From: Candidatus Gottesmanbacteria bacterium
GTDB lineage: Bacteria > Patescibacteriota > Microgenomatia > UBA10105 > UBA927
Direction: 5' to 3'
Assembly: GCA_016218255.1 (NCBI GenBank)
Contig: JACREN010000044.1
Coordinates: forward strand, 2,489 to 66,488
Length of the DNA stretch: 64,000 nt
The translations under genes and the position numbers were made by a program. The notes beneath the pieces were generated by a model. The model was not told the origin of the DNA. It did no database searches and saw nothing but the letters and a program-made list of their open reading frames with translations. Positions 1-27,290 of the stretch are shown piece after piece; the first letter of the stretch is position 1; the number at the start of each line of letters is the position of its first letter.

Positions 1-221
1 AATTGAGCAGGAAACCAATTTGAGTTTCTTCTTCTCCAACGGGCCAACAACGCGATGATCGAATTATCAGAAACGTGTCTACTGGTAAAAACTTTCAGCG
101 ATCCGGCTGTTCGGGAACGATTTTTTAGTATCGGAATGGTCAATATTCGCATACTGTATTTCGGATGCTTAAGATAATTCATCTGCGATGATACCTTTGC
201 TTTAAACGTCTCTCGCATGTC

Positions 222-1349
222 TTAAGTCACGCCGAGCAGTTCGCGGATAGAATCGGAAACATACGCGACTTCGCGTTCGCCCAAACAAACACCGCTCGGT
301 AAATTTATTCCTGAATATGCAAGCTCATGCGATACAGAAGTGTTGAATTTTGGTTTTGGATAAATACCAAAATCACTTATGGGGTAAAAAAACGGCCGGG
401 TGTCAATATTTCGAAGCTTTAACGCTATTCGAAGTTCATCACGGCTCAGCCGAAATTTCTTTTCCATGACAATAGAAGTCATCCAATAACTGCTCCGAAC
501 ATCTGTCCTCTCGGGATTCATCGATAATCCTTCAATGGTCCCAAGTCTTGACTTGTACCACGAAAATATCTGCCTTTTTCTTGCTATCAAATCTTCAATT
601 TCTTCAAGTCTGGCCAATCCCAGAGCTGCCTGAATATTTGACATAGGATACATATACCCAATCTCATCATGCCAAAACTGACGCTTTGGATTAATTCCAT
701 GATCCACAAGCGATCTGGCTCTCTCAATCCAGGATTTTTTATTCGTTATCAGCATACCGCCTTCACCTATGGCCAGAAGCTTCGCCCCCTGGAAACTAAA
801 TGCTGCTGTGTCGCTTGTTACTCCTGCATGCTTCCCATTCAGAATACATCCTAACCCCTCGCACGCATCCTCAATGACATACAGTTTATATTTTTTTGCC
901 AACGCCCGTATACCACGCATATCCGCTACGTTTCCGTACAGATGCACCGGCATAATAGCCCGGGTTCGCCTGGTTATATACCGCTCGGCTTTTCTGACGT
1001 CAATGGACCATGTATCACGATCCACATCAACCAGTACCGGTCTGGCTCCCGTATACTGTACAGCATTCGCACATGCGATATAGGTAAAGTCTGGTATGAG
1101 CACTTCATCGCCGGGACCAACGCCAGCAAGAATAAGTCCCATATGAAGTGCACTTGTGCCTGTCGGCATCGCGAGAGCATACGAAGTCCCGACGTACCTT
1201 GCGAATGCTTCTTCAAATTTATATATGTAATCACTGTGATGGAAATTCCATCCATTTTTGGCCGCATCCGTCACGTAAGCTAATTCATGACGACTTATCT
1301 TGGGTCCGGCAGTCAGTATCATTTCGTTGGGCTTCTGCATGCGCTTCAT
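222..1349 (-). CDS. DegT/DnrJ/EryC1/StrS-family PLP-dependent sugar aminotransferase
   Basis: 375-aa ORF. It has the Gly-rich PLP fold signature 'AMPTGTSALHMGL' and the catalytic Lys in 'FSFQGAKLLAIGEGG'. Lys (not His) argues for an aminotransferase rather than an E1-type dehydrase. The real start may be the internal Met in 'MILTAGPK' near 1322. Confidence 0.85.
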   Translation of the reverse strand: MKRMQKPNEMILTAGPKISRHELAYVTDAAKNGWNFHHSDYIYKFEEAFARYVGTSYALAMPTGTSALHMGLILAGVGPGDEVLIPDFTYIACANAVQYTGARPVLVDVDRDTWSIDVRKAERYITRRTRAIMPVHLYGNVADMRGIRALAKKYKLYVIEDACEGLGCILNGKHAGVTSDTAAFSFQGAKLLAIGEGGMLITNKKSWIERARSLVDHGINPKRQFWHDEIGYMYPMSNIQAALGLARLEEIEDLIARKRQIFSWYKSRLGTIEGLSMNPERTDVRSSYWMTSIVMEKKFRLSRDELRIALKLRNIDTRPFFYPISDFGIYPKPKFNTSVSHELAYSGINLPSGVCLGEREVAYVSDSIRELLGVT

Positions 1350-2284
1350 AAATTGATGGTGTTCCGAATAATATATCGCGGCCGGCGCTTTACTTCAAGG
1401 AATATTTTTGCCAGGTATTCTGCTATCACGCTTAAACTCAAAAGCTGGACGCCTCCCAAAAATAAAATAAGAATCACGATAGTCGGTATCCCCCGCGGTG
1501 CATCGCGATAGACAATGATCATGCTTATATTGATTATTATAAGAACCAATGTCATGAGCATGACAAAAAATGCGGTTAATGATATCCATTCAAGCGGTTT
1601 AAATGAAAAATTGATAATGAGAGTTTTTGCCCACCAAAACCCGGACATGAGGGATTCATTTGATCTGCCGGCGTGGCGGGCATCCCTCACATAAGAAACG
1701 CCAATTTGGCGAAACCCCACATACGCCCGAAGACACCGGAGATAATAATCATATTCATCCATAGCCAGAAGCGCTTCCATGGGTTTTCGCCCTATAAGAG
1801 AAAACTCTCCTGCGTCAGGAGGAATGGGAAAATAGGCGAGTTTTTGAAGGAAAAAATAAAATCCCCGATACAGTACGTTCATAAGCGCAGTCGCGCCTCT
1901 TCGTTTCTTTCGTACTCCATAAACGATATCGTACCCCTTGCGCCAATGCAAAATAAATTCACGGATGAGCTCCGGCGGATCCTGTATATCTCCGTGCAAA
2001 AGTACCACTGCTTTTCCCTTCGCATACTGAAGTCCGGCCAAAAAACTTGGCTGGGGCGAACCGAAATTCCGGCTCATGACAATGACCTTTACGCGCCGAT
2101 CCCGCTGGCCAAGAGACGAAAAAATGCTTTCTGACCCGTCCGTTGATGCGTTGTCCACAAAAATAAGTTCAAATTCATACCCCGGTAGGGTTGCAATAAC
2201 CGATTTTACCCGAGTATACATCTCTCGGATATTTCCGGATTCGTTATAACAGGTTACAACAACTGATATAAGTGTTTTTCTCAT
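1346..2284 (-). CDS. Family-2 glycosyltransferase, polyprenol-phosphate sugar synthase type (ArnC/GtrB/DPM1-like) with C-terminal TM helices
   Basis: N-terminal GT-A motifs 'ISVVVTCYNE', 'VDNASTDGS' and 'HGDIQDPP', followed by two hydrophobic C-terminal helices. The ORF track gives 1346..2374. An internal ATG at 2284 ('MRKTLISVVV') gives an ATGA overlap with the upstream gene that ends at 2281. Confidence 0.8.
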   Translation of the reverse strand: MRKTLISVVVTCYNESGNIREMYTRVKSVIATLPGYEFELIFVDNASTDGSESIFSSLGQRDRRVKVIVMSRNFGSPQPSFLAGLQYAKGKAVVLLHGDIQDPPELIREFILHWRKGYDIVYGVRKKRRGATALMNVLYRGFYFFLQKLAYFPIPPDAGEFSLIGRKPMEALLAMDEYDYYLRCLRAYVGFRQIGVSYVRDARHAGRSNESLMSGFWWAKTLIINFSFKPLEWISLTAFFVMLMTLVLIIINISMIIVYRDAPRGIPTIVILILFLGGVQLLSLSVIAEYLAKIFLEVKRRPRYIIRNTINL

Positions 2285-3240
2285 CCGTATTTTTTGTACC
2301 AGGCCAATGTTTTCAAGATTCCTCCACGAAGTGAGTAGTGGGGCATCCACCCAAGATTTTTTATCTTTTCCCAATCAAGGTGCTGATAGGGTATTTCATT
2401 CTTCGAAGTGTTTGCGATAGAATATCGTATTCGCTTATGAAGAATTTTTTCGGTACGCTTAATGAGCTCAATAACTGAACACGACACTTCAGAAGATATA
2501 TTAAACGCCTGTCCTTTAATTTTTCCCATACGTTCTAGTAGAAATACATACGCTCTCGCCACATCACCGACGTAGATATAATCACGTATATATGTACCGT
2601 CGCTTCGTAACACCACAGGAACGCCATGGACCAGACTATTCATAATGCCGGGAATAATTCTACTATTATGCAGATCTCCCGGACCATAAATATTGCCAAA
2701 TCTTGTTATAGCTACAGGAACTCCGTATGTCTGCCAATATGCGTTAGCTATTAAATCAGCAGCGGACTTAGAGACTTCATATGGATGATCACCCCGAAGT
2801 GGATCATCCTCTCTGTAAATTTTTTTCAATTTACCATATGCTTTATCCGATGAAGCAAGTATCACGCCATGGACGCGCGGGGTACGGCGGGCAGCCTCAA
2901 GTATAGAAACCGAACCTAATACATTGGTCCGTATCGCTTCTGCTGGATTTTCATAGGACGTTGTCACGATAGCAGAAGCAGCCAAATGGATAATGCTGTC
3001 TATTTCATATCGAGTCACGACATCAATCACACGATCTGTATCGTTGACATCGCAATGCACACTAATCACTTTCTGATCGAGTTCTTTGGTGATAAAATAA
3101 CTATTAGGATCATGACTCCGGACAGTAGTAACGACTCTATATCCCCTTCCGAGAAGCAATTCAATGACGTGACCGCCGACCAAACCGGTTCCGCCAGTAA
3201 CCAGAACCGTCTGACCCGTCAATCGTTCCATATTTTCCAT
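2281..3240 (-). CDS. NAD-dependent extended-SDR sugar-nucleotide dehydratase/epimerase (CDP-glucose 4,6-dehydratase-like)
   Basis: Rossmann motif 'VLVTGGTGLVGGHV' and catalytic 'YEVSK' (YxxxK). It lies immediately downstream of a glucose-1-phosphate cytidylyltransferase, the usual partner of the CDP-glucose 4,6-dehydratase. Confidence 0.6.
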   Translation of the reverse strand: MENMERLTGQTVLVTGGTGLVGGHVIELLLGRGYRVVTTVRSHDPNSYFITKELDQKVISVHCDVNDTDRVIDVVTRYEIDSIIHLAASAIVTTSYENPAEAIRTNVLGSVSILEAARRTPRVHGVILASSDKAYGKLKKIYREDDPLRGDHPYEVSKSAADLIANAYWQTYGVPVAITRFGNIYGPGDLHNSRIIPGIMNSLVHGVPVVLRSDGTYIRDYIYVGDVARAYVFLLERMGKIKGQAFNISSEVSCSVIELIKRTEKILHKRIRYSIANTSKNEIPYQHLDWEKIKNLGWMPHYSLRGGILKTLAWYKKYG

Positions 3241-3998
3241 TTTGGGTCAGTTTTCCAATACATATTAAGGTTTTCTACATCCGAATATGTGTCCATCGAG
3301 TGCCAAAATCCGCTATGAATATACAGAGAAACCTGACGCTCCTTCACAAGGCGGTGGATTGCTGCGTGCTCATACTCCTCGGGCCGGAGGTAGTTAAAAA
3401 AACTTTTCTTAAATACCATAAAACCGCCGTTTACCCATTCGCGGAGAGACGGTTTTTCAATGAAATCGGTTACAATATTATTTTTATCAACCTTCACCTG
3501 ACCATATTTGCTTCGCGGGTATACACCGGTAATCGTTCCTATGGTATTCTGCTTCTTATGAAAAGAGACGAGTTTTGTGATATCGATATTTCCGACACCG
3601 TCACCGTATGTCACCATAAAATTATCCTCAGTAATATAAGGCTTAATACGTAATATCCGCTCCCCGGTCAGCGTCTCCTGACCGGTTTCAACAAATGTAA
3701 TATTAAAATCGTCAATCCGTTTGTCTTTCTTTCTCAAAGTATGAATTTTCGTTTTACCCGTTCTTGTCGAAAGCGTAAAATCATGCAAAAAATATTTCTG
3801 GTTTAGAAAATAGTCCTTAATCGCATCTCCTTTATACCCAAGAGCAATCACAAAATCTTTATATCCATAATGGGCATAAATTTTCATAATATGCCAAAGA
3901 ATCGGCTTATTGCCGATGGTGACGAGCGGCTTTGGCTTAAACTCCGTCTCCTCTTTTAAGCGGTAACCTATACCGCCGGATAATATTATTGTTTTCAT
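3219..3998 (-). CDS. rfbF: Glucose-1-phosphate cytidylyltransferase
   Basis: 259 aa. N-terminus 'MKTIILSGGIGYRLKEETEFKPKPLVTIGNKPILWHIMKIYAHYGYKDFVIALGYKG' matches the RfbF/DdhA nucleotidyltransferase signature over its whole length. Confidence 0.85.
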   Translation of the reverse strand: MKTIILSGGIGYRLKEETEFKPKPLVTIGNKPILWHIMKIYAHYGYKDFVIALGYKGDAIKDYFLNQKYFLHDFTLSTRTGKTKIHTLRKKDKRIDDFNITFVETGQETLTGERILRIKPYITEDNFMVTYGDGVGNIDITKLVSFHKKQNTIGTITGVYPRSKYGQVKVDKNNIVTDFIEKPSLREWVNGGFMVFKKSFFNYLRPEEYEHAAIHRLVKERQVSLYIHSGFWHSMDTYSDVENLNMYWKTDPKWKIWND

Positions 3999-6116
3999 CT
4001 AAAACAGATCTTCTGGATCCCCTCCGTGATACGGAAATAAAAAGAATATTCTAAATCGTCCGATCACAAATGTACTCTTATTGGCAATACTTTGCAACGG
4101 ACGGCGCTCAGTCAGACGCATATCACCCTCCACCTGATATTTGTTATGCGTTCTGGGTCCTTGAAAAAGTCTCGCAGTAGGCCCTTCATAGAAAAGCTGA
4201 GTGCCATACGGCGGATAGTCGCCAAAAAAATATGGCAGACTGCCCCCAGCAATTGCATTATTTTTCACGATAATCTGATTTTCCTTTTCAAGAAAGGTTC
4301 CTTGTATCGGAATCGCCAACCATTCGCGGAAATTCGGCCACGCGGCTGCTTCTGCCAAAGCATCCTCAACTCCAGCATACCCGCCTAATCGTGGCAATGT
4401 CCGCTGCCACTGGCGCACAGCACGTAAATCGACAGGAGACATCCGCATCATCATTGGAACCCGATCAAACAACTCCTGACCATTTAGCATGACAGTCAAA
4501 AACTGGGTTGCGTTCGGATCCTGTATATCCATGATCAGATACCCATTCAAATCACGCAACCTAGATAACGCTTCGTTTCCCAGGGTAATTTCCTGATGTA
4601 TTTCCTCTCCTTGATTCAATGGTTTCCGCCATTCATGCCAATTCCTGCTTCGTATCTCTGGCGCTATGACAATGGAAATATAGACAATGAGAACACTTGG
4701 TAAAAGTTTCTTCGCCCAGTGATGTGCAATAATAAGCTTTGCGTTGCGATCAATCTTCCAAAGCATCCTCAACGCCCATACAACAATTACTCCTGAGACC
4801 AAAAAATTCACGATCCGCCACACGCGACTGTCAGAAATTAACGGGATTATCCGAAGCTCAATTCCGAGAATATACGGGCCTAATAAAATCCATGACAAGA
4901 AGAGTCCGCACAAACTCAACACCGATTTTCTTGCTGATTGATAATTCCAAAGAAACCGTAACTCCTCTATGCCCGCACCTGCCAACAGCAGTAAAATTCC
5001 CAATACGGGCATCTGATATCGAATTTCCTCCACATAATATAAAGACACGAATACCGTATTCCACAGAATCATTGAACTTATGAGAAGCATAAATCTATGA
5101 CGAAGGGCCGCCCTCGTACCCCACGCTGCCAAAAAAAGTATGCCCGCATGAAGCAGCTGAAGACTCCGCTGGTCCGCAAACGGAAAACTCGTCGCATATG
5201 AATTTGCAGCGTGCCGCCACAACCGGCTTACTCGTTCAAGCTCCAATATAAACAATGAAGCCATATTCTGACGCAATAGTAATCTGGAAAACATATCCAT
5301 CCATCCGGATACTTTGATACCATCCATCCACCATCCGTCTGTTGCCAGCGTATGAGCGTTCATGAATGTACTCGCTATACCGCCAACGCCATAAATACTT
5401 GTGCCGGTAAATGTAAGCATTGCGTTCCATGCAATGACCGGTATTGCGTACCCAGCAATCAGACCATATAGATTTTTTCGCTTGATAGTTCTGTCCATTA
5501 ATAATGGTAGACCGATAAAAAGCATCCCATAATAAGTAAAAACATGACGGATCAAACCCATAATAAATAAAATGAATCCGGCGCCAACGAACCAATAGAG
5601 ATGTTTTTTCCGTAATACAATCCAACTTATGGCAAATACGGTAAGCTGCAACGCTACACCCGTTATCTGTTCCGGCATCCACGAATAGATAAACGCGAAA
5701 AACGGCGTATAAAATGCTCCGACCAAGCCTACAGCAAGCGCAATCCATAGTGGGAACAGCTTCAAGGCGGTCAAAAATAATGCTGATACGAATCCCGCGT
5801 TCAAAATTGGAGCCACGTCGCGTGGTGTCCATTTGGCATTTTCCAGTACCGCAACGTATACGTTATAAAGCGGAGACCCATGCGTGTTTGCACCGGCAAA
5901 ATTATGCTTCAGCGCAGCTATGAATGCGGATTGTTCCTCTATCACAAGTGATCCCACGGCAATGCGCCAAAGGTTGTTTACGGCTATCGCGGCGAGTCGA
6001 TACTCCTTTGCATCTGAAGGTTCGTTATAATCTCCAGTCGCTACAAATTCCAGCCGCACCTGGTATGCAATCCAAAAAAGAAAAAGTGTTATTCCAAGGA
6101 TCAGTATTTTTTTCAT
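3999..6116 (-). CDS. GT-C-type glycosyltransferase, ArnT/PMT-like (GT39/GT83 superfamily)
   Basis: 705 aa with an N-terminal TM helix. The first loop carries an acidic motif 'SDAKEYRLAA' resembling the ArnT 'DExRYA' motif. It also has a 'HGSPLY' element, about 10 predicted TM helices and a C-terminal soluble domain of about 230 aa. Confidence 0.55.
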   Translation of the reverse strand: MKKILILGITLFLFWIAYQVRLEFVATGDYNEPSDAKEYRLAAIAVNNLWRIAVGSLVIEEQSAFIAALKHNFAGANTHGSPLYNVYVAVLENAKWTPRDVAPILNAGFVSALFLTALKLFPLWIALAVGLVGAFYTPFFAFIYSWMPEQITGVALQLTVFAISWIVLRKKHLYWFVGAGFILFIMGLIRHVFTYYGMLFIGLPLLMDRTIKRKNLYGLIAGYAIPVIAWNAMLTFTGTSIYGVGGIASTFMNAHTLATDGWWMDGIKVSGWMDMFSRLLLRQNMASLFILELERVSRLWRHAANSYATSFPFADQRSLQLLHAGILFLAAWGTRAALRHRFMLLISSMILWNTVFVSLYYVEEIRYQMPVLGILLLLAGAGIEELRFLWNYQSARKSVLSLCGLFLSWILLGPYILGIELRIIPLISDSRVWRIVNFLVSGVIVVWALRMLWKIDRNAKLIIAHHWAKKLLPSVLIVYISIVIAPEIRSRNWHEWRKPLNQGEEIHQEITLGNEALSRLRDLNGYLIMDIQDPNATQFLTVMLNGQELFDRVPMMMRMSPVDLRAVRQWQRTLPRLGGYAGVEDALAEAAAWPNFREWLAIPIQGTFLEKENQIIVKNNAIAGGSLPYFFGDYPPYGTQLFYEGPTARLFQGPRTHNKYQVEGDMRLTERRPLQSIANKSTFVIGRFRIFFLFPYHGGDPEDLF

Positions 6117-9055
6117 TGTATCCGCGCAGAATAAACTTCAAGGCTTGAAGGATTCGGAGAGCCGACAACGATAATCTTCCGTAAAATGCTGCCGCTGCAA
6201 TCTAATGCGGTCTGAACCGTTTGTCTTCCATGCTGAAGCGGAAATGAACGAAAGTGCCAAAGCCCCCCAATTAATGTCTTTTGGTTTTGATTCTGTTTAC
6301 TCCAGTCCGCATCCTCCGCGCACACCCAGGCAAGCAACATGGTTTTGTACCGAATAAGCGATGACAATGTTTCCTGTATCGAAAAATCGTTCACATAATG
6401 CCAATTGACCCCCGCAAGTTCAAATATCTTATCCGGAGAGTATTGTCTATTGCTAACCGGCTCAATAACGATCTCATCAAGCGATACAGGTGCGGAAGGA
6501 GTCTGCGTAATAACAATCTTCACCGAACGGTATATTCCAGGTATTACCGTCACCGCATGCATTCCGCCATTATTCGGGCTCCAAGAAATCTTTGTATCCT
6601 CACCTATGCGCCCTATCTTTACGTATGATTCTCCGTAACGCGATCCGTAGACTACGCCCTCTAGCGGCATGCGTTCACTTACCATATTTTTCGGTGTATT
6701 GAGCAATATTCTCCCCACATCTGTAGATTCCGCAAAAGAAAGTATTATCTCTATCGGCAAATTATTGTTTCCTAAATAAAATATTTCATCTGGAGCAGGT
6801 GATGGATCGGAAACAAATACTCCATCGATCAACGATTGCGCACGCACCCGCGCATCGGTTTCATCCAGGCCGGATACAGATGCCCGAATCCCCTGTCGAA
6901 TCAAATCAACCTTCTGGATAGCACGATTGATTTGTATCCGGTCATCCAAATTTATTTCTCCCAGTAGACGATCCTGAAAAGACAGCACAGTGAATGAAGA
7001 AAGGATTTCCTGGATGCTCCTTGCAGCTATCGGCGCGTATTCCTTTATCATCCACCAGAATTGTCCCGGTACGCGAGCTTCTTTTGGAATGATTACCGCA
7101 TCGGAAAATGGAAATTGAACATCCGGCAAAATATTCTGACCGAGAGAAATTTCCAACATCGTTGGCAGGAGCAATCTTTCCCCAATTTCACGGCTTGTAA
7201 GCATCGGGCGCTTTGCCAAATAGAGGGTTCCGTTCGTGTCTATTTTCGTAAATTCCGTCTCGGAAACGGCTTCTTCAAAGACGATGGGTACCGGTATAGA
7301 ATTCTCTTTTTCAAAGAAGATTCTTCTCGCCATCCCGGAAATATTCGCAAACACTGACGTCTCAGGATTAGCATAAAAAGCAAAAAACCTGTCCTTCGTA
7401 TATATGCCGGATTCTATAAGATTGCGGATCTCCCGGACATCATTGCTATAAAATAACTCATCCGTTCGATAAAATCCGTATAGCCACCGCCAGCCGGCAA
7501 CATTGACATCAAGTGCATTCCGGACGGGATTTACGGAATAGATAAGCTTCGGCTTTCCGTCGCGGGGAACCATAGCAAAAAATTTATCGATCAACGCCCT
7601 CTCTTTATTACTGATACCCTCAACTATGCCCCGATGACCCTGAATACTCACCATGCTATTCCCCATCAACACGACGAGAGTTACTATCCATCCGACACGA
7701 CCGAATACGATTCCTTTTTTGCCCCAAAGCCAATAAAGACCCACGCCAAACAGCGTACTCACGCCCACAGCGGCAGCAAAAACATATCTCGCTCCCGGGC
7801 CATACGGAGGTGTTATGCGGGAAAAATAAAACGGAAAAAACAATAAATCGCTTTTTGTAGTGATGTAAAGCGGGACGTAAAACATACTGCTCAAGATCAA
7901 TACGACAGAAAAAACAAGAATTTTCGTCACCCAATGCTGGTTTTTCAACCGAAACAACGCGAGAAAACCGATAATAATAAAGCCGATTAAGGACACCAAT
8001 CCGATCCCATATATCAAATACTGCTCAATAAATGGATTTAACACCAGACTTCCGATCCACATCCGCATGGATGGAAAAGCGCCAATAGCATTTGGCATCA
8101 CCAGTTGAGCCATATAATATGCCAAACGCTCGCTGTAGATATCCCATCGGAACGGAGACGCAACCACAACATTGCTCTTCTTCAATACTCCCTCAAGTAC
8201 TGCAGACCATCCGCCTGGAATAAGACGGATTCCGATAAATCCAAGCCACACCAATCCGATCCCAAAGCTCTCTCCCAGACGCATTATAATGCTGCGTTTC
8301 CGCTTTGCTGGCATCCAGAGGATCGCGAAAAGTCCGAACACCAAACCGGCAATCCGTACAAAACCCATTTTGACTGAAGCGATAAAAAATAGTAATGAAA
8401 GCAGATAATATATACTCGCGCGTTTTTGGGAGTAGCGATAAAGAAAAATAAATGAAAGTATATGAAGACCTAATACCAATGGCATACCCTGGGCATTAGC
8501 CTGCCATGAAAACACATCCAAAAATACCGGTGTAGTGGCAAAATACAATGAAGAAAGGAGTGCAATACTTTTTTTATTACTTATGACAAATACTAAAAAA
8601 TATAAACTCACAGCGGCAAAAATAAACCAAAAAAGAGAAACAATATTGTAGAACCACGCATTTGTACCGAACAAAAGATAAGAAAGTACAAATGACGCGA
8701 ATGGATAGCCGTTTATAATGTAATGGAACGGAAAACCTGCAGCGCCATTAGTAACGGGCGTTAATATAGAAGAGCTGTCTTCGGCAAAAAAATAGTAGCG
8801 GAGAATCAATCCGTGCGCGATAACACCTGCAGTCAGTAGTATTCCAATCTGGATCTTATGCTGAGAAATAGTTCTTGCTATCGGGCGAACGAGGTTGCTT
8901 TGCAATAAAAAAATAACGGCTATCACCATTGGCAACGATTGATCTATCACATAGCTCCACCCGACTCCGATTCGGGACTCAAGCCAAACGTAAAGTCCCG
9001 CATTAAAACTCATTATGCTGTAAAAAATTGCCGCAATAATCCACATTAGCGTCAT
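6113..9055 (-). CDS. Large polytopic membrane protein with a C-terminal extracytoplasmic domain of about 500 aa (GT-C-like, function unknown)
   Basis: 980 aa. The N-terminal ~480 aa are strongly hydrophobic with many helices; the C-terminal half is soluble. It has a 4-nt overlap with both flanking genes. Confidence 0.5.
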   Translation of the reverse strand: MTLMWIIAAIFYSIMSFNAGLYVWLESRIGVGWSYVIDQSLPMVIAVIFLLQSNLVRPIARTISQHKIQIGILLTAGVIAHGLILRYYFFAEDSSSILTPVTNGAAGFPFHYIINGYPFASFVLSYLLFGTNAWFYNIVSLFWFIFAAVSLYFLVFVISNKKSIALLSSLYFATTPVFLDVFSWQANAQGMPLVLGLHILSFIFLYRYSQKRASIYYLLSLLFFIASVKMGFVRIAGLVFGLFAILWMPAKRKRSIIMRLGESFGIGLVWLGFIGIRLIPGGWSAVLEGVLKKSNVVVASPFRWDIYSERLAYYMAQLVMPNAIGAFPSMRMWIGSLVLNPFIEQYLIYGIGLVSLIGFIIIGFLALFRLKNQHWVTKILVFSVVLILSSMFYVPLYITTKSDLLFFPFYFSRITPPYGPGARYVFAAAVGVSTLFGVGLYWLWGKKGIVFGRVGWIVTLVVLMGNSMVSIQGHRGIVEGISNKERALIDKFFAMVPRDGKPKLIYSVNPVRNALDVNVAGWRWLYGFYRTDELFYSNDVREIRNLIESGIYTKDRFFAFYANPETSVFANISGMARRIFFEKENSIPVPIVFEEAVSETEFTKIDTNGTLYLAKRPMLTSREIGERLLLPTMLEISLGQNILPDVQFPFSDAVIIPKEARVPGQFWWMIKEYAPIAARSIQEILSSFTVLSFQDRLLGEINLDDRIQINRAIQKVDLIRQGIRASVSGLDETDARVRAQSLIDGVFVSDPSPAPDEIFYLGNNNLPIEIILSFAESTDVGRILLNTPKNMVSERMPLEGVVYGSRYGESYVKIGRIGEDTKISWSPNNGGMHAVTVIPGIYRSVKIVITQTPSAPVSLDEIVIEPVSNRQYSPDKIFELAGVNWHYVNDFSIQETLSSLIRYKTMLLAWVCAEDADWSKQNQNQKTLIGGLWHFRSFPLQHGRQTVQTALDCSGSILRKIIVVGSPNPSSLEVYSARIQ

Positions 9056-10458
9056 TTATTTTTTGAGTATAATACCAAAGCATCCATACGCATCACTTCA
9101 CGGTAATTCTCTCTCATATACGCCAGAAACGGCCATGTGGAAAGCCCGCGGGGCAAATCCGGATGAGCCCAGTCAAACACAATAGCTGCTGGAGGGTTGC
9201 TAGTAAATACCTTCGTTGTTTCAACAAATGGCTCGAGAATAAACGGCGTAAAATTCGTATATTTATTTGCAGGAAGACGGTCAGACAACAAATAGATCAT
9301 CTCGCTCCCGTAGCTTATAATACGGTCTTGCTTATGCGTATTCTCATTTATCCAGACAGCCATTCTTTTTTCAAAATCCCCCCAGTCAGTCAAATATTGC
9401 TCACGGTGAAAACCGTTATCTCTAACAAAACCATTGTATGCACTCATATACCGTGATACCAACGTCATATATCCTATAAACCCGCACACAATGGATAAAC
9501 GGACCCAAGCAGTGTTCTTTTTATGCAACAAACCACGGATCAAATAACCGGCTGCGACGGAAACAAGAGCAAAACTGGTAAATGTCCGATAGGATAAGTA
9601 TGACGGCAACAAAGACGGAATAAGCGCGACAACAAAAAGTGTCAACAAAATAGCTGTCTTCCGTTGCATCCCCAATTGTTTCCATAAGAAAACACAAGGC
9701 AAAAGAAGAATGCCATATGCAAATTCGATATACAAACCGTCCCCGTGATCCAAAAGAGTGAAATTCCGGTATGGACCAACCACAGTATACAGAGAATAAT
9801 ACAGAAAATCGTACAGTGCTCCACGAAAGAAAAAGTATACCCCTATCAAAATAAACGGAACGGTCAACCCAAAGACATATACAAAGCTGCTCCTCATCAG
9901 ACGACTCATAGATTGCTTCCTAATATATAGATAGAATTGAAAAAACGGCAAGATTAAGACCACAAAAATGGTGTTTTGTTTGGTTGCGACAGTAAAGCCC
10001 GCACATATACCCGCTGCTAATGCCCAAACCGGCCGGTTTGTTAACGCATACTGATGAATCAAGAAAAACAGCAAAAGAACCAATAATCCCACCATTAGTT
10101 CGCCCACTTCCACATTGAGGAAGAGTGGAAACAGAAAGACCAAAAAAAATATACACGCCGGATATACTATCTTTCTGTCAATTCTCTTCAAAACCCACAG
10201 AAATATCGACACCAACAGGCCAAACATTACCCAAATAAATAACTGATACGCTGATCCGCTCGCGCCAAACAGTCTGTACCAAGCTGATAACAAAAACATA
10301 TCGAACGGCATACGAAGCCAAATGATATCCTTATACAGCGTTAATCCCTTTGTCATAAACCAGGGATAAATCACACCGGCAGTCCAAACGTGAAATGGAA
10401 GAAAATATATATTAGCAGTTATCCATAAAAGAGACACGAGATACAACATACCCGCCAT
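9052..10458 (-). CDS. Polytopic membrane protein, paralog of 13104..14486 (GT-C/GT87-like candidate)
   Basis: 468 aa. It shares with 13104..14486 an N-terminal 'ITANIYFLPFHVWT...LYKD' region and a TM 'TKQ(N/T)' element. The start codon is ATG at 10458. Confidence 0.5.
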   Translation of the reverse strand: MAGMLYLVSLLWITANIYFLPFHVWTAGVIYPWFMTKGLTLYKDIIWLRMPFDMFLLSAWYRLFGASGSAYQLFIWVMFGLLVSIFLWVLKRIDRKIVYPACIFFLVFLFPLFLNVEVGELMVGLLVLLLFFLIHQYALTNRPVWALAAGICAGFTVATKQNTIFVVLILPFFQFYLYIRKQSMSRLMRSSFVYVFGLTVPFILIGVYFFFRGALYDFLYYSLYTVVGPYRNFTLLDHGDGLYIEFAYGILLLPCVFLWKQLGMQRKTAILLTLFVVALIPSLLPSYLSYRTFTSFALVSVAAGYLIRGLLHKKNTAWVRLSIVCGFIGYMTLVSRYMSAYNGFVRDNGFHREQYLTDWGDFEKRMAVWINENTHKQDRIISYGSEMIYLLSDRLPANKYTNFTPFILEPFVETTKVFTSNPPAAIVFDWAHPDLPRGLSTWPFLAYMRENYREVMRMDALVLYSKNK

Positions 10459-10498: not shown

Positions 10499-11332
10499 AT
10501 GAACGCAGTGATCTTTACCAGTAGCCATCACATGCTCGCCAATTATATCATTAAGCATTTGCTCTCTATGCATGATCTGAATATCGTTGCGATCGTGGAA
10601 TCCGACGCTGTATATCCGGGCAAAGGAAAGTGGCAGTCGCTTATATTTATGATACGGAAATCCGGATTACAGTATGTTGGATCCCAGATAATCAAATTCC
10701 TTTATTTTCATATCGGAAGCACCCTATACGGCTTCTTTCCCGGCAATAAACCGTCACACATTCTCTATTCGTATCATGAAATAACAAAGACTAAACATAT
10801 TCCTATTTTACTTGAAAAAAATATCAACACACAAACATTCATTACCACAATGCAATCACTCAAGCCTGATCTGTTTGTTTCTATTTTTTTCAACCAGATA
10901 TTCAAAAAAAATGTACTTTCGTTGCCAAAGAGAGGTACTATAAATCTCCATCCGGCATATCTTCCGTCATACCGGGGATTAAGTCCGACATTTTGGGTAC
11001 TTGCAAACGGCGAGCATCATACCGGCATCACCGTGCACCGTATAGACAGTGAGGCAATTGACGCTGGACAAATTTTAGGTCAAATCCGGATCCCCATTCT
11101 TGCACAAGATACGGAATACTCCCTTTATTGGCGATGCGTCCGAATGGGCGTTCCTTTGCTTGAGGATATCATTACTTCAATTGATCGAAACAAACGAAAC
11201 CATGCAAAACCTGATAGCCGCGTTAAGCCTAGCTATTTTTCTCTCCCAAAAAAGTCTGATGTCAATCGATTCTGTGCCCGCGGGAGAAAATTTTTAACGC
11301 TTCGGCAACTCGTCGGTTCCCCGAAGTTTTAA
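10499..11332 (+). CDS. Formyltransferase-domain protein (ArnA-N/Fmt-like sugar-nucleotide N-formyltransferase)
   Basis: 277 aa. 'INLHPAYLPSYRGLSPTFWVLANGEHHTGITVHRIDSEAIDAGQIL' matches the formyl_trans_N catalytic core (N/H/D). It is the only plus-strand gene in the first 21 kb and sits between the aminotransferase genes. Confidence 0.75.
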   Translation: MNAVIFTSSHHMLANYIIKHLLSMHDLNIVAIVESDAVYPGKGKWQSLIFMIRKSGLQYVGSQIIKFLYFHIGSTLYGFFPGNKPSHILYSYHEITKTKHIPILLEKNINTQTFITTMQSLKPDLFVSIFFNQIFKKNVLSLPKRGTINLHPAYLPSYRGLSPTFWVLANGEHHTGITVHRIDSEAIDAGQILGQIRIPILAQDTEYSLYWRCVRMGVPLLEDIITSIDRNKRNHAKPDSRVKPSYFSLPKKSDVNRFCARGRKFLTLRQLVGSPKF

Positions 11333-12016
11333 TGAGGCGATCGTATAAGATATAAACATTGGAATGAATCTTGATTTGCTTTCTCCGTAAGGACGGTTAC
11401 GGTAATATACCGGAATTTCATAAAATGTGCCTCCCGCTTGTTTCACTTTTGTTATTAGCCGCATAAAATAATCTCCATACCCGGCAAATAATCCGGCATC
11501 CGAATTTCCGAGTGAAAGGATAAATTTCCGGTCAACACAAAAAAATCCGCTTAAAAAATCAGTAACAGGAAGATGGAATAACAGTCGAAGATATATATTA
11601 AAAAATCGGCTGAGCCAATACCGTCGCGAGTTCTCCATACCGCCACCGGTAATATACCGCGATCCAATAGCAAGTGTTGCTTTTCGACAAGCCTCACCAA
11701 GCTTCGGAATCACAGATGGATCATGGCTCAAGTCTGTATCCATTACCACGACCTGTTTACCCCTGGCTTTCTGAACACCAAACCATATTGCAGAAGCCAG
11801 TCCCCGCTCTTTTTTTCTGACGAAAACCCGAACTGAACGTTTTCCTCTAAACGCATGTTTACATACCACAGCAGTACCATCAGGACTGCTATCGTCGACA
11901 ACGATAGCTTCATATTTCGCTTTCGCAAACAATGCAGTACGAAAAATGCTCTTTATGAGTGGGATAATATTGCCTTTTTCGTTATAAGTTGGAAGAATAA
12001 CGGAAATATCGATCAT
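11294..12016 (-). CDS. Family-2 glycosyltransferase, DPM1-like polyprenol-phosphate sugar synthase (soluble form)
   Basis: 240 aa with motifs 'ISVILPTYNEKGNI', 'VVDDSSPDGT' and 'VMDTDLSHDP', which are DPM1/Ppm1-type. Its 3' end overlaps the formyltransferase 3' end convergently by 39 nt. Confidence 0.8.
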   Translation of the reverse strand: MIDISVILPTYNEKGNIIPLIKSIFRTALFAKAKYEAIVVDDSSPDGTAVVCKHAFRGKRSVRVFVRKKERGLASAIWFGVQKARGKQVVVMDTDLSHDPSVIPKLGEACRKATLAIGSRYITGGGMENSRRYWLSRFFNIYLRLLFHLPVTDFLSGFFCVDRKFILSLGNSDAGLFAGYGDYFMRLITKVKQAGGTFYEIPVYYRNRPYGESKSRFIPMFISYTIASLKLRGTDELPKR

Positions 12017-13107
12017 ACAACACGCAGAATACGAACTATTTGTTTGCAGATATACCGTATATCCTTTTCTGTCACTTTTGCACTCGACGGTAGGCTCATG
12101 CCCCGATCCGAAATATCATCTGAATTCGGAAATGATTTCTTTTTTTTATACATCGGCAAACGATGCAAGGGTACAAAAAATGGCCTTGTTTCAATTCGTG
12201 CGCGAGCGAGTTCTTCCATAAGATATTTTCGGACCGAACAGGAAGGTAAAAGAATGGAATACATCCAATAAATATTACGTGCCCATTCTATGCCAGGCGG
12301 CAAAACAATCCCCCGAACAGATTTTAGAAGCGTATTGTATAGGGCTGCATGTTTTCGTTTTGCAGTAAGAACGACGTCAATGTGCTCCAATTGCGCCAAG
12401 CCGAATGCCGATTGAAGATTAGTTAATCGGTAATTAAAGCCAATTTCGCTATGCATATATTGTTTCTTCTGATCCTGTGCATGAGCCTTCAGATAGGCGA
12501 TCCGGTCGATAATCCCTTTATTGCCGGATACCACCATGCCTCCCTCACCAGTCGTCATAACCTTATTCCCGTAAAAACTAAAACACCCTACATCACCAAT
12601 GGAACCAACTTTTTTGCCTTTATATAGCGCTCCGTGAGACTCACATGCATCTTCTATTACAAGAAGATCATGTTCCCGCGCAACCGCAAGTATTGGATCC
12701 ATATCCGCGGGATGACCGAACAAATGCGCGACAATAATCGCTTTAGTTTTTTTCGTAATGCTACGTTTAATCGCACCAGGATCAATATTCCATGTCTCCA
12801 TGTTTATGTCTGCTAAAACCGGAGTAGCTCCAGCATAGACAACGACATTCGCTGTTGATACAAAAGTAAAATCCGGTACGATCACTTCATCTCCTGGTCC
12901 AATACCTAAAGCAACCAATGCGAGATGAAGCGCTGCAGTTCCACTCGCAACACTGGTTGCATGAGCCACACCACAAAACTTCGCAAATTTATTCTCAAAC
13001 AGATCGACATACGATCCATGCGATATCCAAGTGGATTTTATACAATCCGTCACGTACTTGAGTTCATTTCCCAAAAGTATCGGTTCTGATGCGGGTATAA
13101 TTTTCAT
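12013..13107 (-). CDS. DegT/DnrJ/EryC1-family PLP-dependent sugar aminotransferase
   Basis: 364 aa with 'ATSVASGTAALHLAL' and the catalytic Lys in 'FSFYGNKVMTTGEGG'. The start is typical, 'MKIIPASEPILLGNELKYV'. Confidence 0.85.
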   Translation of the reverse strand: MKIIPASEPILLGNELKYVTDCIKSTWISHGSYVDLFENKFAKFCGVAHATSVASGTAALHLALVALGIGPGDEVIVPDFTFVSTANVVVYAGATPVLADINMETWNIDPGAIKRSITKKTKAIIVAHLFGHPADMDPILAVAREHDLLVIEDACESHGALYKGKKVGSIGDVGCFSFYGNKVMTTGEGGMVVSGNKGIIDRIAYLKAHAQDQKKQYMHSEIGFNYRLTNLQSAFGLAQLEHIDVVLTAKRKHAALYNTLLKSVRGIVLPPGIEWARNIYWMYSILLPSCSVRKYLMEELARARIETRPFFVPLHRLPMYKKKKSFPNSDDISDRGMSLPSSAKVTEKDIRYICKQIVRILRVV

Positions 13108-14486
13108 AACGTATAAATACCAATCGTGTCAAACTCTTGTTGGAGTGTATAGTTCTGACGCAAAAAGTCAAGGAAACCCCATCCGGAGAGCTCCGGCCAA
13201 TCATCTATCAGTCTCCGGTCGTACACGACCACTTTAGGCGGTTTACTTATCAGCTCTGCAGTGGTCTGAGCAAACGGTAAATAATCAATGGGCATTCCGC
13301 CCACGTACCTGTTAAACGGCAGTCTGTTCGCCCTCATCATTATAATGTTATTTGCCATGTTAAACACTTTTTCTGTTTCTTCGGTGTTATCTCGCAACCA
13401 ACGCGCAGCCGCCAGTTCGTTCTCGCTATAATCTACGAGATATTGATTAGGAGAGAAACCATTATCAAGAATGTATCTTCTATATTCATTGACCGGTCTA
13501 ATGATAGATATCAAAAAAACTATAAAGGCCGAAACAAACAACATCTTTCTGGGGGTATTTCCTTTCGTTTTTATATATGTGTTTGCCTCCAGCAATACGA
13601 ACGCTGCGCCAATACACAACAGTGGAAAAGAGGCGACCAAACGGTATGACCAATACGAGGGTAACAGCATAACAAAAAGTGCCAGTATGAATCCCGATAA
13701 CAAATGTTTTACCTTTGACTGTGAGATACTTGTTCTCGCGATCAACAAAAAAGGCACGAGAATTGCCATATATACGCCTATCATATTCAACGCGGTATTT
13801 ATCCCCCATGCCTTTGCCCACCCTTTGTATATTGTCGCTACAAAAAGAAGACCCTGGATATAGTCATTGAGCGCACCATGAAACCAAAGAAACAGAACAA
13901 CAGCAGCCACTGGCATAAGCACTCCCAGGCTATATAGGCCAATCCATTTCCATCGTTTCCACAAAAAAAGAACCATAACAAGGATCAATACACCCGAAGT
14001 CTGCTTCGTCATAAGGCTTAAACCGGAAAATAGTCCTGCCCAGATAAGCCATATCGGCTTATTGCGCCGGGTTAACTCCCAAGAAGAGAAAAACGTGCAC
14101 AACGCAAAAAAACCAACGAGTATTTCCTCTATCTCTGCGTTTGAAAATAAGGGGAACAAAAACACAATAAACATGCTATAAGCAAGCAGCGCAAGTCTTA
14201 GGGATAATTTCCGGAGATATCCAAACAATAGAAATCCTGTCAGTAGAAATACTACTGCTACGACCAGCTGGTAACTTATTGGATGTACGCCGATAATTTT
14301 ATACACGGCCGCCAGCAGCGATATATCAATCATGCCTCTGTTCCATAGATGATCTCTATACGGCAATAGTCCCCGAAGAAGCAACCATGGCCGATACAAA
14401 CCTTCGGTCCAGGGATAAAAGGGAAGTAAAAAAATATTTACCGTTATCCAGATACTTCCCAAAGCTAAAACGATAAAGGGAATCAT
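13104..14486 (-). CDS. Polytopic membrane protein, paralog of 9052..10458 (GT-C/GT87-like candidate)
   Basis: 460 aa. N-terminus 'ITVNIFLLPFYPWTEGLYRPWLLLRGLLPYRDH' is collinear with the 468-aa paralog. It shares the 'MTKQT' TM element. Confidence 0.5.
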   Translation of the reverse strand: MIPFIVLALGSIWITVNIFLLPFYPWTEGLYRPWLLLRGLLPYRDHLWNRGMIDISLLAAVYKIIGVHPISYQLVVAVVFLLTGFLLFGYLRKLSLRLALLAYSMFIVFLFPLFSNAEIEEILVGFFALCTFFSSWELTRRNKPIWLIWAGLFSGLSLMTKQTSGVLILVMVLFLWKRWKWIGLYSLGVLMPVAAVVLFLWFHGALNDYIQGLLFVATIYKGWAKAWGINTALNMIGVYMAILVPFLLIARTSISQSKVKHLLSGFILALFVMLLPSYWSYRLVASFPLLCIGAAFVLLEANTYIKTKGNTPRKMLFVSAFIVFLISIIRPVNEYRRYILDNGFSPNQYLVDYSENELAAARWLRDNTEETEKVFNMANNIIMMRANRLPFNRYVGGMPIDYLPFAQTTAELISKPPKVVVYDRRLIDDWPELSGWGFLDFLRQNYTLQQEFDTIGIYTL

Positions 14487-14488
14487 AG

Positions 14489-15265
14489 CTATTTCACAGC
14501 CTCAACATAACAAAGAGGCCAAAATAACCGGTATTTCAGAAGTGATTGAATAAATCGCCGAAACCACTTCGGAATAAACGCAATAGGGTAATACATGGGA
14601 AAATACGCGACTGTTTTGACCGTGAACCCGGCTTTTAAGAATAACTGTCGCAATTGTCCCGGCGTAAAGGACTGTTCATAACCGTAATGCAAATATTTAC
14701 CACTCATCCACTTCAAATGAAACCATTCCATGAGTTGCCGAAGAATCGGCACATTAGGTATATCGCCCCGCAACTGATGATATGTAAGAGTGGTAAGAGA
14801 AACGACCGGAACAACGGCGATCATCGTCCCTCCCGGCTTAAGCACTCGATATGCCTCCTTTATCGCTTTCTTCGTACTCCGAACATATTCCAAAGACATG
14901 CAGGACCAAATAAATGAGAACTCATTTTCACGAAATGGCAACGCGAGCAAATTTCCTTGAACAAAAAATCCACGGCTGCCACGTTTTTTGAATAATTGTT
15001 TCGATTTGATAACCGCTTCTTTGGTTATATCTACACCGGTCACATGCCCTCCTGATTGGGCAACCAAGCTCGACACCCATGCAACGCCGCACCCAAGGTC
15101 CAAAAACGAAATGGAGTTCCATTTTCTATGATACTTCAAAAGAAATCGCCAATAGGATTGAATGGTAGGATCTTTTTCTATCACTCGGTCAAGAGATTCT
15201 TTCTTATGTAATCCTTCCCACCGCATCTTGGACAGCAGTACATCTGTGGTAGCTATAGGTTTCAT
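14489..15265 (-). CDS. Class I SAM-dependent methyltransferase
   Basis: Motif I 'FLDLGCGVAWVS' and post-I 'VTGVDI', then 'VLKPGGTMIAV'. The ORF track extends to 15394. An internal ATG ('MKPIATT') at 15265 gives an ATGA overlap with the upstream gene that ends at 15262. Confidence 0.75.
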   Translation of the reverse strand: MKPIATTDVLLSKMRWEGLHKKESLDRVIEKDPTIQSYWRFLLKYHRKWNSISFLDLGCGVAWVSSLVAQSGGHVTGVDITKEAVIKSKQLFKKRGSRGFFVQGNLLALPFRENEFSFIWSCMSLEYVRSTKKAIKEAYRVLKPGGTMIAVVPVVSLTTLTYHQLRGDIPNVPILRQLMEWFHLKWMSGKYLHYGYEQSFTPGQLRQLFLKAGFTVKTVAYFPMYYPIAFIPKWFRRFIQSLLKYRLFWPLCYVEAVK

Positions 15266-16173
15266 GAGATCGATACGTCTGCCATGCCTATCTGATAAAA
15301 ATAATTCTTTCTGCCGCTGTAATACAGAACAAGTCTGTTCCCCTCCCTGTAAGGACATGCACGGCTTGCAGAAATCGCGTCCCATGATCCCCAAGTCACA
15401 TCAAGGACAGGATTAGCCGAATATTTTTTCCAATGAATCAAATCACGACTTTCAGCCGCACCGGTCCGCTCAATACCTGAAGCGTCGATACCGCTGTAAA
15501 ACATTACATACACACCGCCATATTCGATAACTCTGGGATCGGATATGCTTTTCTCATCCCATGCACCCGCACTTCCCACATCCAGAACCGGCTTCGGAAA
15601 CCGTGTAGTAATCGACGACAATGTCTTTCCGGTCGCCAGACCTACCCGTTCCCGCTCGCCGTCATGGCCGGCATAATACATATAGTATATGCCCTTTTTC
15701 CGATAAACCGCGCACCGGCTCACATGCCGCTTTTCCCACCACGCCGCACCGACACGAAAAATCGGATTTGACGGATACCTTCGCCAATTAACGCCATCCG
15801 TGCTATCCGCCAGACCGATCTCTTCCAGCCAGTCTCCAACCCTGCTTCCGTCATAAAGCATGGATATATTTTTTCCGTGGTCAAACACATACGCATGAGC
15901 GGTAAAATCGCTATCCCACGAATCTTCTACTCCGTTTGGTAACGCCACCACCCCCGTTTTTACCCAATGCGTCAGACTCTCACCTCTTGCTGCAAGCGTA
16001 TAATGCCGGATTCCTAATCCGATGCTTTTTCCGGTATAAAAAAGCAAACGGTGCTTCCCCAAGCGGACTGCCACAGGATGATACGCCCACAACGCATCAG
16101 GGGCAAAAAAATTACCGGAAAATATTCCCGGAGAAAGAATCGGCTTAGGATATTTTTTAATCTGAATTCTCAT
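15262..16173 (-). CDS. Five-bladed beta-propeller glycoside hydrolase/phosphorylase-like protein (GH130/GH43-like fold)
   Basis: 303 aa with repeated W-D/E blade signatures: 'SWDSDFTAHAYVF', 'GAWDEKSISDPRVIEYGGVYVMFYSG' and 'GSWDAISASRA'. This resembles GH130 mannoside phosphorylases. Confidence 0.45.
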   Translation of the reverse strand: MRIQIKKYPKPILSPGIFSGNFFAPDALWAYHPVAVRLGKHRLLFYTGKSIGLGIRHYTLAARGESLTHWVKTGVVALPNGVEDSWDSDFTAHAYVFDHGKNISMLYDGSRVGDWLEEIGLADSTDGVNWRRYPSNPIFRVGAAWWEKRHVSRCAVYRKKGIYYMYYAGHDGERERVGLATGKTLSSITTRFPKPVLDVGSAGAWDEKSISDPRVIEYGGVYVMFYSGIDASGIERTGAAESRDLIHWKKYSANPVLDVTWGSWDAISASRACPYREGNRLVLYYSGRKNYFYQIGMADVSIS

Positions 16174-27123: not shown

Positions 27124-27290
27124 AGTGCTTTTTCGGCAAAATAAAAATTATTGGGGAGATATTTGAATTTCTTGGGCATGAACGGCTGTGGTGGCTCGCC
27201 CCGCCGATTATCATATTGCTCTTGTTTGGTCTTCTGTTTGTCCTGTCTCACGGTACGGTGCTTGCCCCATTTTTGTATCCACTATTCTGA
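27120..27290 (+). CDS. Tiny single-TM membrane protein (56 aa) of a family often found next to carbamoyltransferases
   Basis: The ATG at 27120 overlaps the stop of the SGNH gene (ATGA). The product is 'MKCFFGKIKIIGEIFEFLGHERLWWLAPPIIILLLFGLLFVLSHGTVLAPFLYPLF'. It is not called as such in the ORF track. Confidence 0.5.
   Translation: MKCFFGKIKIIGEIFEFLGHERLWWLAPPIIILLLFGLLFVLSHGTVLAPFLYPLF

Follow-up and report, generated by a model that had tools for sequence, protein, structure and literature searches.

A candidate operon for the synthesis and lipid loading of a CDP-linked amino sugar in Candidatus Gottesmanbacteria

Sugars activated with cytidine diphosphate (CDP) are known mainly as 3,6-dideoxyhexoses. 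Which sugar, then, is made where an RfbF-like cytidylyltransferase gene is followed by a dehydratase, a lipid-carrier glycosyltransferase (GT) and an aminotransferase? The question is raised by a minus-strand gene cassette of Candidatus Gottesmanbacteria, an uncultured groundwater bacterium of the Patescibacteria (Candidate Phyla Radiation, CPR). The cassette lies at the start of a stretch of 64,000 nucleotides (nt) of contig JACREN010000044.1 (GenBank assembly GCA_016218255.1, positions 2,489 to 66,488), which was analysed as a whole and is called here the window. Our reading, drawn throughout from sequence and gene context, is that the cassette would be a self-contained operon that turns glucose-1-phosphate into a lipid-linked amino sugar. 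We lean slightly towards the complete chain, and consider its first two steps, which would yield CDP-4-keto-6-deoxyglucose, highly probable.

The operon and its first two enzymes

The first biosynthetic gene of the cassette (3219-3998) encodes an RfbF-like sugar-1-phosphate cytidylyltransferase of 259 amino acids (aa). It is followed by an extended short-chain dehydrogenase/reductase (SDR) of 319 aa (2281-3240), predicted to be a 4,6-dehydratase with an Asp-Lys catalytic pair, of a kind that we call type II; by a GtrB-type polyprenyl-phosphate glycosyltransferase of family GT2, with 312 aa and two C-terminal transmembrane (TM) helices (1346-2284); and by a sugar aminotransferase of the perosamine-synthase/LegC type, dependent on pyridoxal 5'-phosphate (PLP), with 375 aa and a Lys at position 190 (222-1349). 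The first, second and fourth of these open reading frames (ORFs) are present on the minus strand with exactly the coordinates given in the first-pass annotation of this DNA. Because the gene junctions overlap by 22, 4 and 4 nt in this order, the four genes form one translationally coupled operon. A Logan contig with identical genes (L001 in our numbering of loci) shows the operon beyond the window start. It continues with a GNAT N-acetyltransferase gene, the N-terminal part of which occupies positions 1-218 (minus strand) before the gene exits the window (220 aa on L001), and then with a paralogue of the 705-aa membrane protein described below (L001 7815-8597). An independent gene call on the same contig gives the glycosyltransferase 312 aa and has it overlap the SDR stop by 4 nt; the 342-aa, TTG-started ORF of the mechanical ORF list is too long.

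Families were assigned with Pfam and NCBIfam profiles, and scores were compared with the curated cut-offs. The profiles confirm all four enzymes: NTP_transferase for the cytidylyltransferase, Epimerase/GDP_Man_Dehyd for the SDR, Glycos_transf_2 for the glycosyltransferase and DegT_DnrJ_EryC1 for the aminotransferase. In the public annotation the cytidylyltransferase alone is specifically named (glucose-1-phosphate cytidylyltransferase, NCBI). From a genome scan we obtained 80 related loci and grouped their cytidylyltransferases by the dehydratase that comes next.

The cytidylyltransferase aligns end to end with the RfbF model TIGR02623 (G1P_cyt_trans; residues 1-257 of 259, profile positions 1-255 of 255) at 264.5 bits (E = 9e-79), below the cut-off of 300.25, and the runner-up nucleotidyltransferase model scores 91 bits, more than 170 bits lower. 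Identity with S. typhi RfbF (1TZF) is 40% across residues 2-257. Four residues of 1TZF, Thr14, Arg15, Lys25 and Arg111, we take to be the phosphate-binding active site, their numbering having been checked by alignment; the equivalents of the three basic residues are retained, and Thr14 is replaced by Tyr. Comparing 13 cytidylyltransferases from canonical rfbF-rfbG-rfbH loci with 41 encoded beside type II SDRs, we found 72 positions that are at least 80% conserved and identical in both groups, and none that is conserved yet different. Nothing therefore suggests an altered substrate. The HddC paper gives no base-specificity residues for RfbF. The gene had been called a clear glucose-1-phosphate cytidylyltransferase in the first pass: the likeness to RfbF stands, down to the conserved residues shared with canonical RfbFs, but "clear" is too strong for a score below the NCBIfam cut-off. 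Cytidylyltransferases 64-71% identical to this one also occur in records titled "uncultured Gammaproteobacteria bacterium" (L007, L008, L011, L013, L014, L016, L018, L019 and others); these records carry CPR-style gene content, and their taxonomic labels look unreliable.

The active site of the SDR reads S131-D132-K133 ... Y154-x3-K158. An Asp-Lys pair is the signature of CDP-glucose 4,6-dehydratases ([ST]-D-K...Y-x3-K, Asp being the acid and Lys the base), whereas Asp-Glu is found in dTDP and UDP dehydratases and Ser-Glu in GDP-mannose dehydratase (GMD), and an acid/base pair is missing from epimerases (PMC8987622, Table 1). The enzyme had been annotated as a dehydratase-like SDR. Checked against RfbG, its catalytic signature bears this out; membership of the curated RfbG family does not follow, the score on TIGR02622 (RfbG, CDP-glucose 4,6-dehydratase) being 174.7 bits with a cut-off of 278.45. 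The dTDP-glucose dehydratase model TIGR01181 gives 183 bits, likewise short of its cut-off (365), and among known structures the dTDP-glucose dehydratases, Thermotoga GalE and RfbG all match at 110-133 bits. Overall similarity leaves the function undecided, and the active site is the informative part. An assignment as an epimerase was considered, Thermotoga GalE being the third-best PDB match, and was rejected because epimerases have no Asp-Lys pair.

Two kinds of SDR come after RfbF-like genes in the related loci. Canonical RfbG (about 356 aa, motif [TS][TS]DK[CV]Y) was found in 13 loci, and in 41 of 57 a type II SDR lies directly downstream. The type II proteins, the SDR of the window among them, have about 320 aa and an invariant SSDK[AS]YG in all 41; compared with canonical RfbG they are shorter by about 40 residues and share about 30% identity. 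Their loci occur in Patescibacteria and also in Chloroflexi, Desulfarculus, Omnitrophica and Actinomycetota. In three of them (L023, L076 and L081) the cytidylyltransferase and the type II SDR are followed by a DegT protein of the His type; on the RfbH equivalog model those of L023 and L076 reach 638 and 742 bits (cut-off 423), and one DegT protein of L010 likewise falls within this range. To our knowledge, RfbH (E1) is known only for CDP-4-keto-6-deoxyglucose. Because a true RfbH, the enzyme of this intermediate, comes next, type II SDRs appear to replace RfbG in otherwise classical operons; nothing else speaks as strongly for CDP-4-keto-6-deoxy-D-glucose as the predicted joint product of the cytidylyltransferase and SDR of the cassette.

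The surroundings of the type II pairs are of interest in themselves. The pair (in L002, L004, L006, L010, L087 and others) is often followed by RfbH and a 290-aa SDR, an acetolactate-synthase-like enzyme dependent on thiamine pyrophosphate is encoded in 19 of 37 type II loci, and split transketolase halves in eight. Such neighbours suggest yersiniose-like branched-chain CDP-sugars in CPR bacteria.

Amination, acylation and transfer to a lipid carrier

The aminotransferase belongs to the DegT_DnrJ_EryC1 family (PF01041, E = 1.5e-105). Its Schiff-base motif is FSFQGAK, with Lys190 in FSFQGAKLLAIGEGG, a stretch that aligns with the Schiff-base Lys region of the GDP-perosamine synthase 3BN1. The same synthase is the best PDB match (276 bits, 38% identity), and among the models that of the LegC family comes nearest (316 bits, cut-off 420), with PseC and ArnB lower. 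The top matches (perosamine synthases, LegC and PseC) are all C4 aminotransferases, with the catalytic Lys present in our protein as well; perosamine synthase and LegC yield an equatorial amine. RfbH/E1 enzymes have a His in place of the PLP Schiff-base Lys and are about 430-450 aa long. With Lys190, 375 aa and 156 bits on the RfbH model (cut-off 423), the aminotransferase does not belong among them. The first-pass annotation had made the same distinction from E1-type 3-dehydrases and had regarded Lys-type enzymes as uncommon in CDP-hexose loci. Both statements agree with the alignment at the Schiff-base position, where 40 of the 52 DegT-family proteins near RfbF-like genes have His, as in true RfbH/E1, and 12 have Lys. 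It had also allowed for a merely incidental co-location; we found that the SDR does not group with epimerases and that the aminotransferase groups with GDP-perosamine synthase and LegC, not with PseC/PglE. A LegB/LegC module for legionaminic acid was rejected, the scores being far under the cut-offs, the cassette having no NeuB/NeuA-type genes and the nucleotidyltransferase being RfbF-like.

The same type of aminotransferase (at least 40% identity) was found in six further loci (L002, L007, L010, L031, L006 and L040). An acyltransferase adjoins it in all seven, the window included: a GNAT in five and a formyltransferase in two, L006 and L040, where cytidylyltransferase, SDR, aminotransferase, formyltransferase and GT2 follow one another in a single operon. 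A membrane-anchored GT2 is present in six of the seven cassettes, the window again counted. In the operon studied here the GNAT gene (L001 7156-7818) starts 4 nt past the aminotransferase stop; its product matches Acetyltransf_3 (E = 7.8e-11) and is named GNAT family N-acetyltransferase at NCBI, and orthologues of 43-47% identity adjoin the same aminotransferase type in L002, L007, L010 and L031. As the acyltransferase of this operon is a GNAT, an acetamido product is likelier than a formamido one, and the product of the cassette would most likely be a 4-acetamido-4,6-dideoxyhexose.

Residues 6-308 of the GT2 align with residues 28-328 of GtrB (5EKP), TM helices included, at 197 bits and 35% identity. 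ArnC structures give 86-92 bits over the full length, and the PgfS model 223 bits, below its cut-off of 500. Two TM-like segments (230-263 and 263-292) follow the N-terminal GT-A domain. The protein is thus a predicted polyprenyl-phosphate glycosyltransferase, more like GtrB and PgfS than ArnC; of the earlier description as an ArnC-like lipid-carrier enzyme, the lipid carrier is retained and ArnC gives way to the closer GtrB. Orthologues of 62-67% identity lie directly after the cytidylyltransferase-SDR pair in L002 (9999-10964) and L007 (3144-4100). The DXD motif, D-A-D in GtrB, is H-G-D here (residues about 96-98), with the second Asp and QDPPE retained. This first Asp is absent from all 11 GtrB-like GT2s near RfbF-like genes, whereas GtrB and the other GT2s of the window retain D-x-D; its loss in the former may reflect a different nucleotide.

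Three genes for membrane proteins precede the cytidylyltransferase gene on the same strand. The one that abuts it (3999-6116) encodes an orphan polytopic protein of 705 aa with about 12 hydrophobic segments, a possible GT-C-like partner. The next (6113-9055) encodes an orphan of 980 aa, with hydrophobic segments within residues 1-470 only and a large C-terminal non-membrane part. The third (9052-10458) encodes a GT-C-like protein of 468 aa that is a paralogue of the PMT_2-positive protein at 13104-14486 (31% identity over 459 residues, E = 7e-74). None of the three has a Pfam match even at E <= 1, nor any in NCBIfam; the counterpart of the 468-aa protein in L088 is PMT_2-positive. Among 5.8 billion proteins, the 705-aa family has six relatives and the 980-aa family 12, all unannotated. 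An hhalign comparison of the 705-aa family with the PMT_2 proteins of the window gave a probability of 83% and an E of 9e-6 from a weak alignment. The gene order is conserved in two other genomes (L087 and L088), with a GT-C-like protein of about 480 aa, proteins of about 977 and about 720 aa, the cytidylyltransferase and the type II SDR; the tailoring genes downstream of this block differ in L087. In L087, L088 and L089 the 980-aa family is always found side by side with the 705-aa family. Members of the latter share an invariant T-x-D-Y-N-E-P-S-D stretch just after the first TM helix.

The proposed route and its alternatives

In the route that we propose, the RfbF-like enzyme would convert CTP and glucose-1-phosphate to CDP-glucose, as homology and the conserved residues suggest. 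The SDR would then oxidise C4 and eliminate water across C5-C6 by means of Asp132 and Lys133, giving CDP-4-keto-6-deoxy-D-glucose, a step to which both the motif and the position of the same clade in place of RfbG in rfbF-X-rfbH operons point. Judging by its closest characterised relatives, the Lys190 aminotransferase would aminate C4, probably equatorially, to yield CDP-4-amino-4,6-dideoxyglucose, and the downstream GNAT, an invariable neighbour, would N-acetylate the amine. The GT2 would move the sugar onto polyprenyl phosphate; homology speaks for its fold and topology, and the operon structure alone for a CDP-sugar as donor. After flipping, the upstream GT-C-like proteins (that of 468 aa, perhaps with those of 980 and 705 aa) would glycosylate a surface acceptor. 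Such an arrangement fits the scheme of multi-component transmembrane glycosylation, which combines a GT-A in the membrane with a flippase and a GT-C (PMC8035078). The weakest link of the chain would be the CDP-sugar as GT2 donor. A wider proposal can be put forward only tentatively: that Microgenomates of the CPR have a new sugar nucleotide, CDP-4-acylamido-4,6-dideoxyhexose, together with a GtrB-family enzyme with H-G-D that has switched from UDP to CDP, and new membrane glycosyltransferases in the orphan 705- and 980-aa proteins.

Several observations weigh against the proposed route. Every enzyme of the cassette scores below the curated cut-off of the equivalog model nearest to it (RfbF, RfbG, LegC, PgfS or ArnC). 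Overall the SDR is slightly nearer to dTDP-glucose dehydratases than to RfbG (183 against 175 bits), the cytidylyltransferase has a Tyr (residue 12) in the GxGTRL nucleotide-binding loop where Thr is near-universal, and the nearest characterised relatives of the aminotransferase work on GDP-sugars. Characterised enzymes of the GtrB/ArnC/DPMS type take UDP- or GDP-sugars, and we know of none that takes a CDP-sugar; 30 of the 37 type II loci have no GtrB-like GT2. The literature that we searched on CDP amino-sugar pathways and CPR glycosylation held nothing relevant, and no CDP-4-amino sugar, CDP-viosamine and CDP-perosamine included, was found in it. The 705- and 980-aa proteins have no recognisable fold, and an AlphaFold2 model of the former, built on a six-member alignment, is too poor for use (predicted local distance difference test, pLDDT, 43; predicted TM-score, pTM, 0.28). 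Finally, the window has no gene for a flippase of the GtrA or Wzx type, nor an unassigned gap that would fit an ORF of about 120 aa, that of a cupin at 29262-29648 excepted. As one flippase encoded elsewhere can serve several transmembrane glycosylation systems (PMC8035078), a window without a flippase gene is not disqualifying.

Among the alternatives, the strongest accepts the CDP-amino sugar as proposed and takes the GT2 for an ordinary enzyme of the GtrB/CsbB type that loads a UDP-sugar (Glc, GlcNAc or Gal). Another glycosyltransferase of the island would then consume the CDP-sugar, and the co-location would reflect a shared final glycan. The window offers candidates, with at least seven other GT2/GT4 genes and about ten of the GT-C-like kind; the closest structure, GtrB, is that of a UDP-glucose enzyme, a GtrB-like GT2 lies nearby in only seven of the 37 type II loci, and L010 has the cytidylyltransferase, SDR, aminotransferase and GNAT without any GT2. 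We nevertheless think this alternative unlikely, given that the GT2 gene is inserted between dehydratase and aminotransferase with 4-nt overlaps on both sides, that L002 and L007 have orthologues in this position and a membrane GT2 is found in six of the seven cassettes, and that the GT2s linked to cytidylyltransferases have all lost the first Asp of DXD, kept elsewhere, which hints at a different donor.

A second alternative, which we judge improbable, changes the nucleotide: cytidylyltransferase and SDR would be a pair for the 4,6-dehydration of a dTDP-, UDP- or GDP-hexose in a perosamine- or viosamine-like pathway. It would accommodate the scores below the RfbF and RfbG cut-offs, the small lead of the dTDP model, the kinship of the aminotransferase with GDP-perosamine synthase and LegC, and the Tyr-for-Thr change. 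The Tyr is present in all relatives of the cytidylyltransferase with at least 64% identity (close Microgenomates) and the Thr in 13 of 13 canonical RfbFs; across the relatives checked, the change follows phylogeny and not neighbouring gene content. Against a different nucleotide stand the lead of the RfbF model over every other nucleotidyltransferase model, the lack of any conserved position that separates these enzymes from those of canonical rfbFGH loci, the Asp-Lys pair where Asp-Glu (dTDP/UDP) or Ser-Glu (GMD) would be expected, and the true RfbH that comes after the same SDR clade.

The third alternative involves two regions outside the operon. The first is an Arn-like paralogous module at 10499-14486, composed of a formyltransferase on the plus strand (10499-11332; Formyl_trans_N, 113 bits on the ArnA N-domain) and three minus-strand genes, for a short GT2 of 240 aa without TM helices (11294-12016), a second Per/LegC-type aminotransferase (12013-13107; DegT, LegC family 366 bits, 39% identical to the first) and the PMT_2 GT-C protein (13104-14486). 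Because the module has no dehydratase of its own, nor a nucleotidyltransferase, it could draw on the same CDP-4-keto sugar, and it might share that intermediate with the operon. A GT2/DegT pair similar to the module is found upstream of the conserved block in L087. The second region is the cupin gene, which lies directly behind a PseB/FnlA-like dehydratase gene in a block of the UDP-GlcNAc type (29262-33355), together with a PseC-like aminotransferase, a NeuD/PglD-type hexapeptide acetyltransferase and a 2-epimerase-like protein. The cupin matches Polysacc_synt_C (CapF/WbjC C-terminal) at 97 bits against 32 for FdtA, and aligns as well with the WbcJ reductase model in its C-terminal part; it would belong to a UDP-HexNAc route 25 kb from the CDP cassette.

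The first-pass annotation had drawn on both regions for an amino or formamido 6-deoxyhexose. Extended to a formamido or a 3-amino sugar, this reading is the least probable of the alternatives: the formyltransferase lies 6.5 kb upstream, L006 and L040 show that a formyltransferase can be joined to such a cassette and the module could use the 4-keto intermediate, but the acyltransferase attached to this operon is a GNAT, the formyltransferase gene is on the opposite strand beside an aminotransferase, GT2 and GT-C set of its own, and the cupin is neither close by nor closest to FdtA. What remains of the earlier interpretation is the CDP-amino-sugar branch, without the links to cupin and formyltransferase; a formamido product would suit the cassettes of L006 and L040 better than this operon.

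The glycan island and its known counterparts

Nearly all of the window (1-64000) is glycan machinery on one strand. GT2 and GT4 genes are interleaved with genes for at least ten GT-C-like proteins, namely PMT_2/YfhO proteins at 13104, 23336, 33352, 39123, 49127, 53313, 54932, 57813 and 60753 and the 468-aa paralogue. A block at 16833-20987 comprises an FnlA-like dehydratase (17951-19006), a WecB/FnlC-like 2-epimerase (16833-17954), a GT4 and a 271-aa SDR that matches the N-terminal half of the WbcJ reductase, and looks like a pathway to a UDP-6-deoxy-L-HexNAc of the FucNAc/QuiNAc type. Consecutive ORFs of 370-540 aa without significant Pfam match (41213-47860, 37174-38430, 50719-52353, 56551-57813 and 59290-60915) give faint hints of Dpy19, ALG3 and PMT_2 (E 0.001-0.3) and are probably additional, divergent membrane glycosyltransferases. 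A NodU/CmcH-type carbamoyltransferase gene (27492-29273) is preceded by hydrophobic ORFs of 56 and 98 aa and by a gene for a GDSL-like protein (25354-27123); from the region at 27120-29273 it may be that the glycan undergoes O-carbamoylation or acyl editing. Inside the island are also two DUF5667 proteins (21865-22449 and 47857-48372), with a third homologue in the syntenic L089 (3292-3885). The minus-strand ORFs 14489-15394 and 15262-16173 overlap by 133 nt, and the TTG start of the methyltransferase is probably placed too far upstream.

Compared with known systems, the cassette would work like a hybrid. From rfbF-rfbG-rfbH (ddhA-ddhB-ddhC; Salmonella, Yersinia) it would take the first two steps, with a first enzyme of the same family (40% identity to 1TZF), the Asp-Lys signature of the second-step chemistry and the order of nucleotidyltransferase, then dehydratase. 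It differs in its dehydratase, which is of the separate clade of about 320 aa, in the lipid-carrier GT2 included in the operon, and in having a Lys-type aminotransferase and a GNAT instead of the His-type RfbH. With RfbH so replaced, the C3 hydroxyl would be retained and C4 would receive an acylamino group. From the perosamine and Arn pathways would come amination and N-acylation. The GDP-perosamine/N-acetylperosamine (Per, PerB) and LegB-LegC-LegH modules have the same sequence of 4,6-dehydratase, C4 aminotransferase and N-acetyltransferase, and Per (276 bits) and the LegC family (316 bits) come closest to the cassette aminotransferase. The starting compound of these modules, however, is GDP-mannose or GDP-GlcNAc, and their acetyltransferases are of the hexapeptide-repeat kind, whereas the cassette has an RfbF-like enzyme and a GNAT, and it stays under the LegB and LegC model cut-offs.

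Lipid loading would resemble that of the Gtr and Arn systems. The Arn pathway (ArnB, ArnA, ArnC, ArnT) likewise proceeds from a keto-sugar nucleotide through DegT amination, N-acylation and lipid loading to GT-C transfer outside. Its sugar is a UDP-pentose, its lipid-linked product undecaprenyl-phosphate-L-Ara4FN, with the formyl group later removed by ArnD, and its acceptor lipid A; the cassette, in a CPR bacterium, would handle a CDP-6-deoxyhexose acylated by a GNAT, and no homologue of ArnD or ArnE/F was seen. With the GtrA/GtrB/GtrC, CsbB-GtcA-YfhO and PgfS systems the cassette shares full-length GtrB homology (197 bits) and GT-C-like partners alongside. Unlike them, it has no GtrA-type flippase in the window, two of its partner membrane proteins are orphans, and it has a dedicated sugar-nucleotide pathway where they use a housekeeping UDP-sugar. 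[quoted passage not shown] The enzyme types are each familiar; their combination is undescribed.

If the proposed route is correct, known enzyme logics have been recombined here with no principle overturned. A CDP-linked amino sugar would be a new class of activated sugar in this nucleotide family, the type II proteins a second and widespread clade of Asp-Lys 4,6-dehydratases missed by the current curated models, and the GT2 the first polyprenyl-phosphate glycosyltransferase dependent on a CDP-sugar; glycoengineering would gain useful parts from all three. For the uncultured CPR bacteria, hardly any surface chemistry has been described. The lipid-carrier loading would most likely serve cell-surface decoration with a CDP-derived 4-acetamido-4,6-dideoxy sugar and, as the window is almost entirely glycan machinery, its products probably dominate the contact of the cell with hosts and phages.

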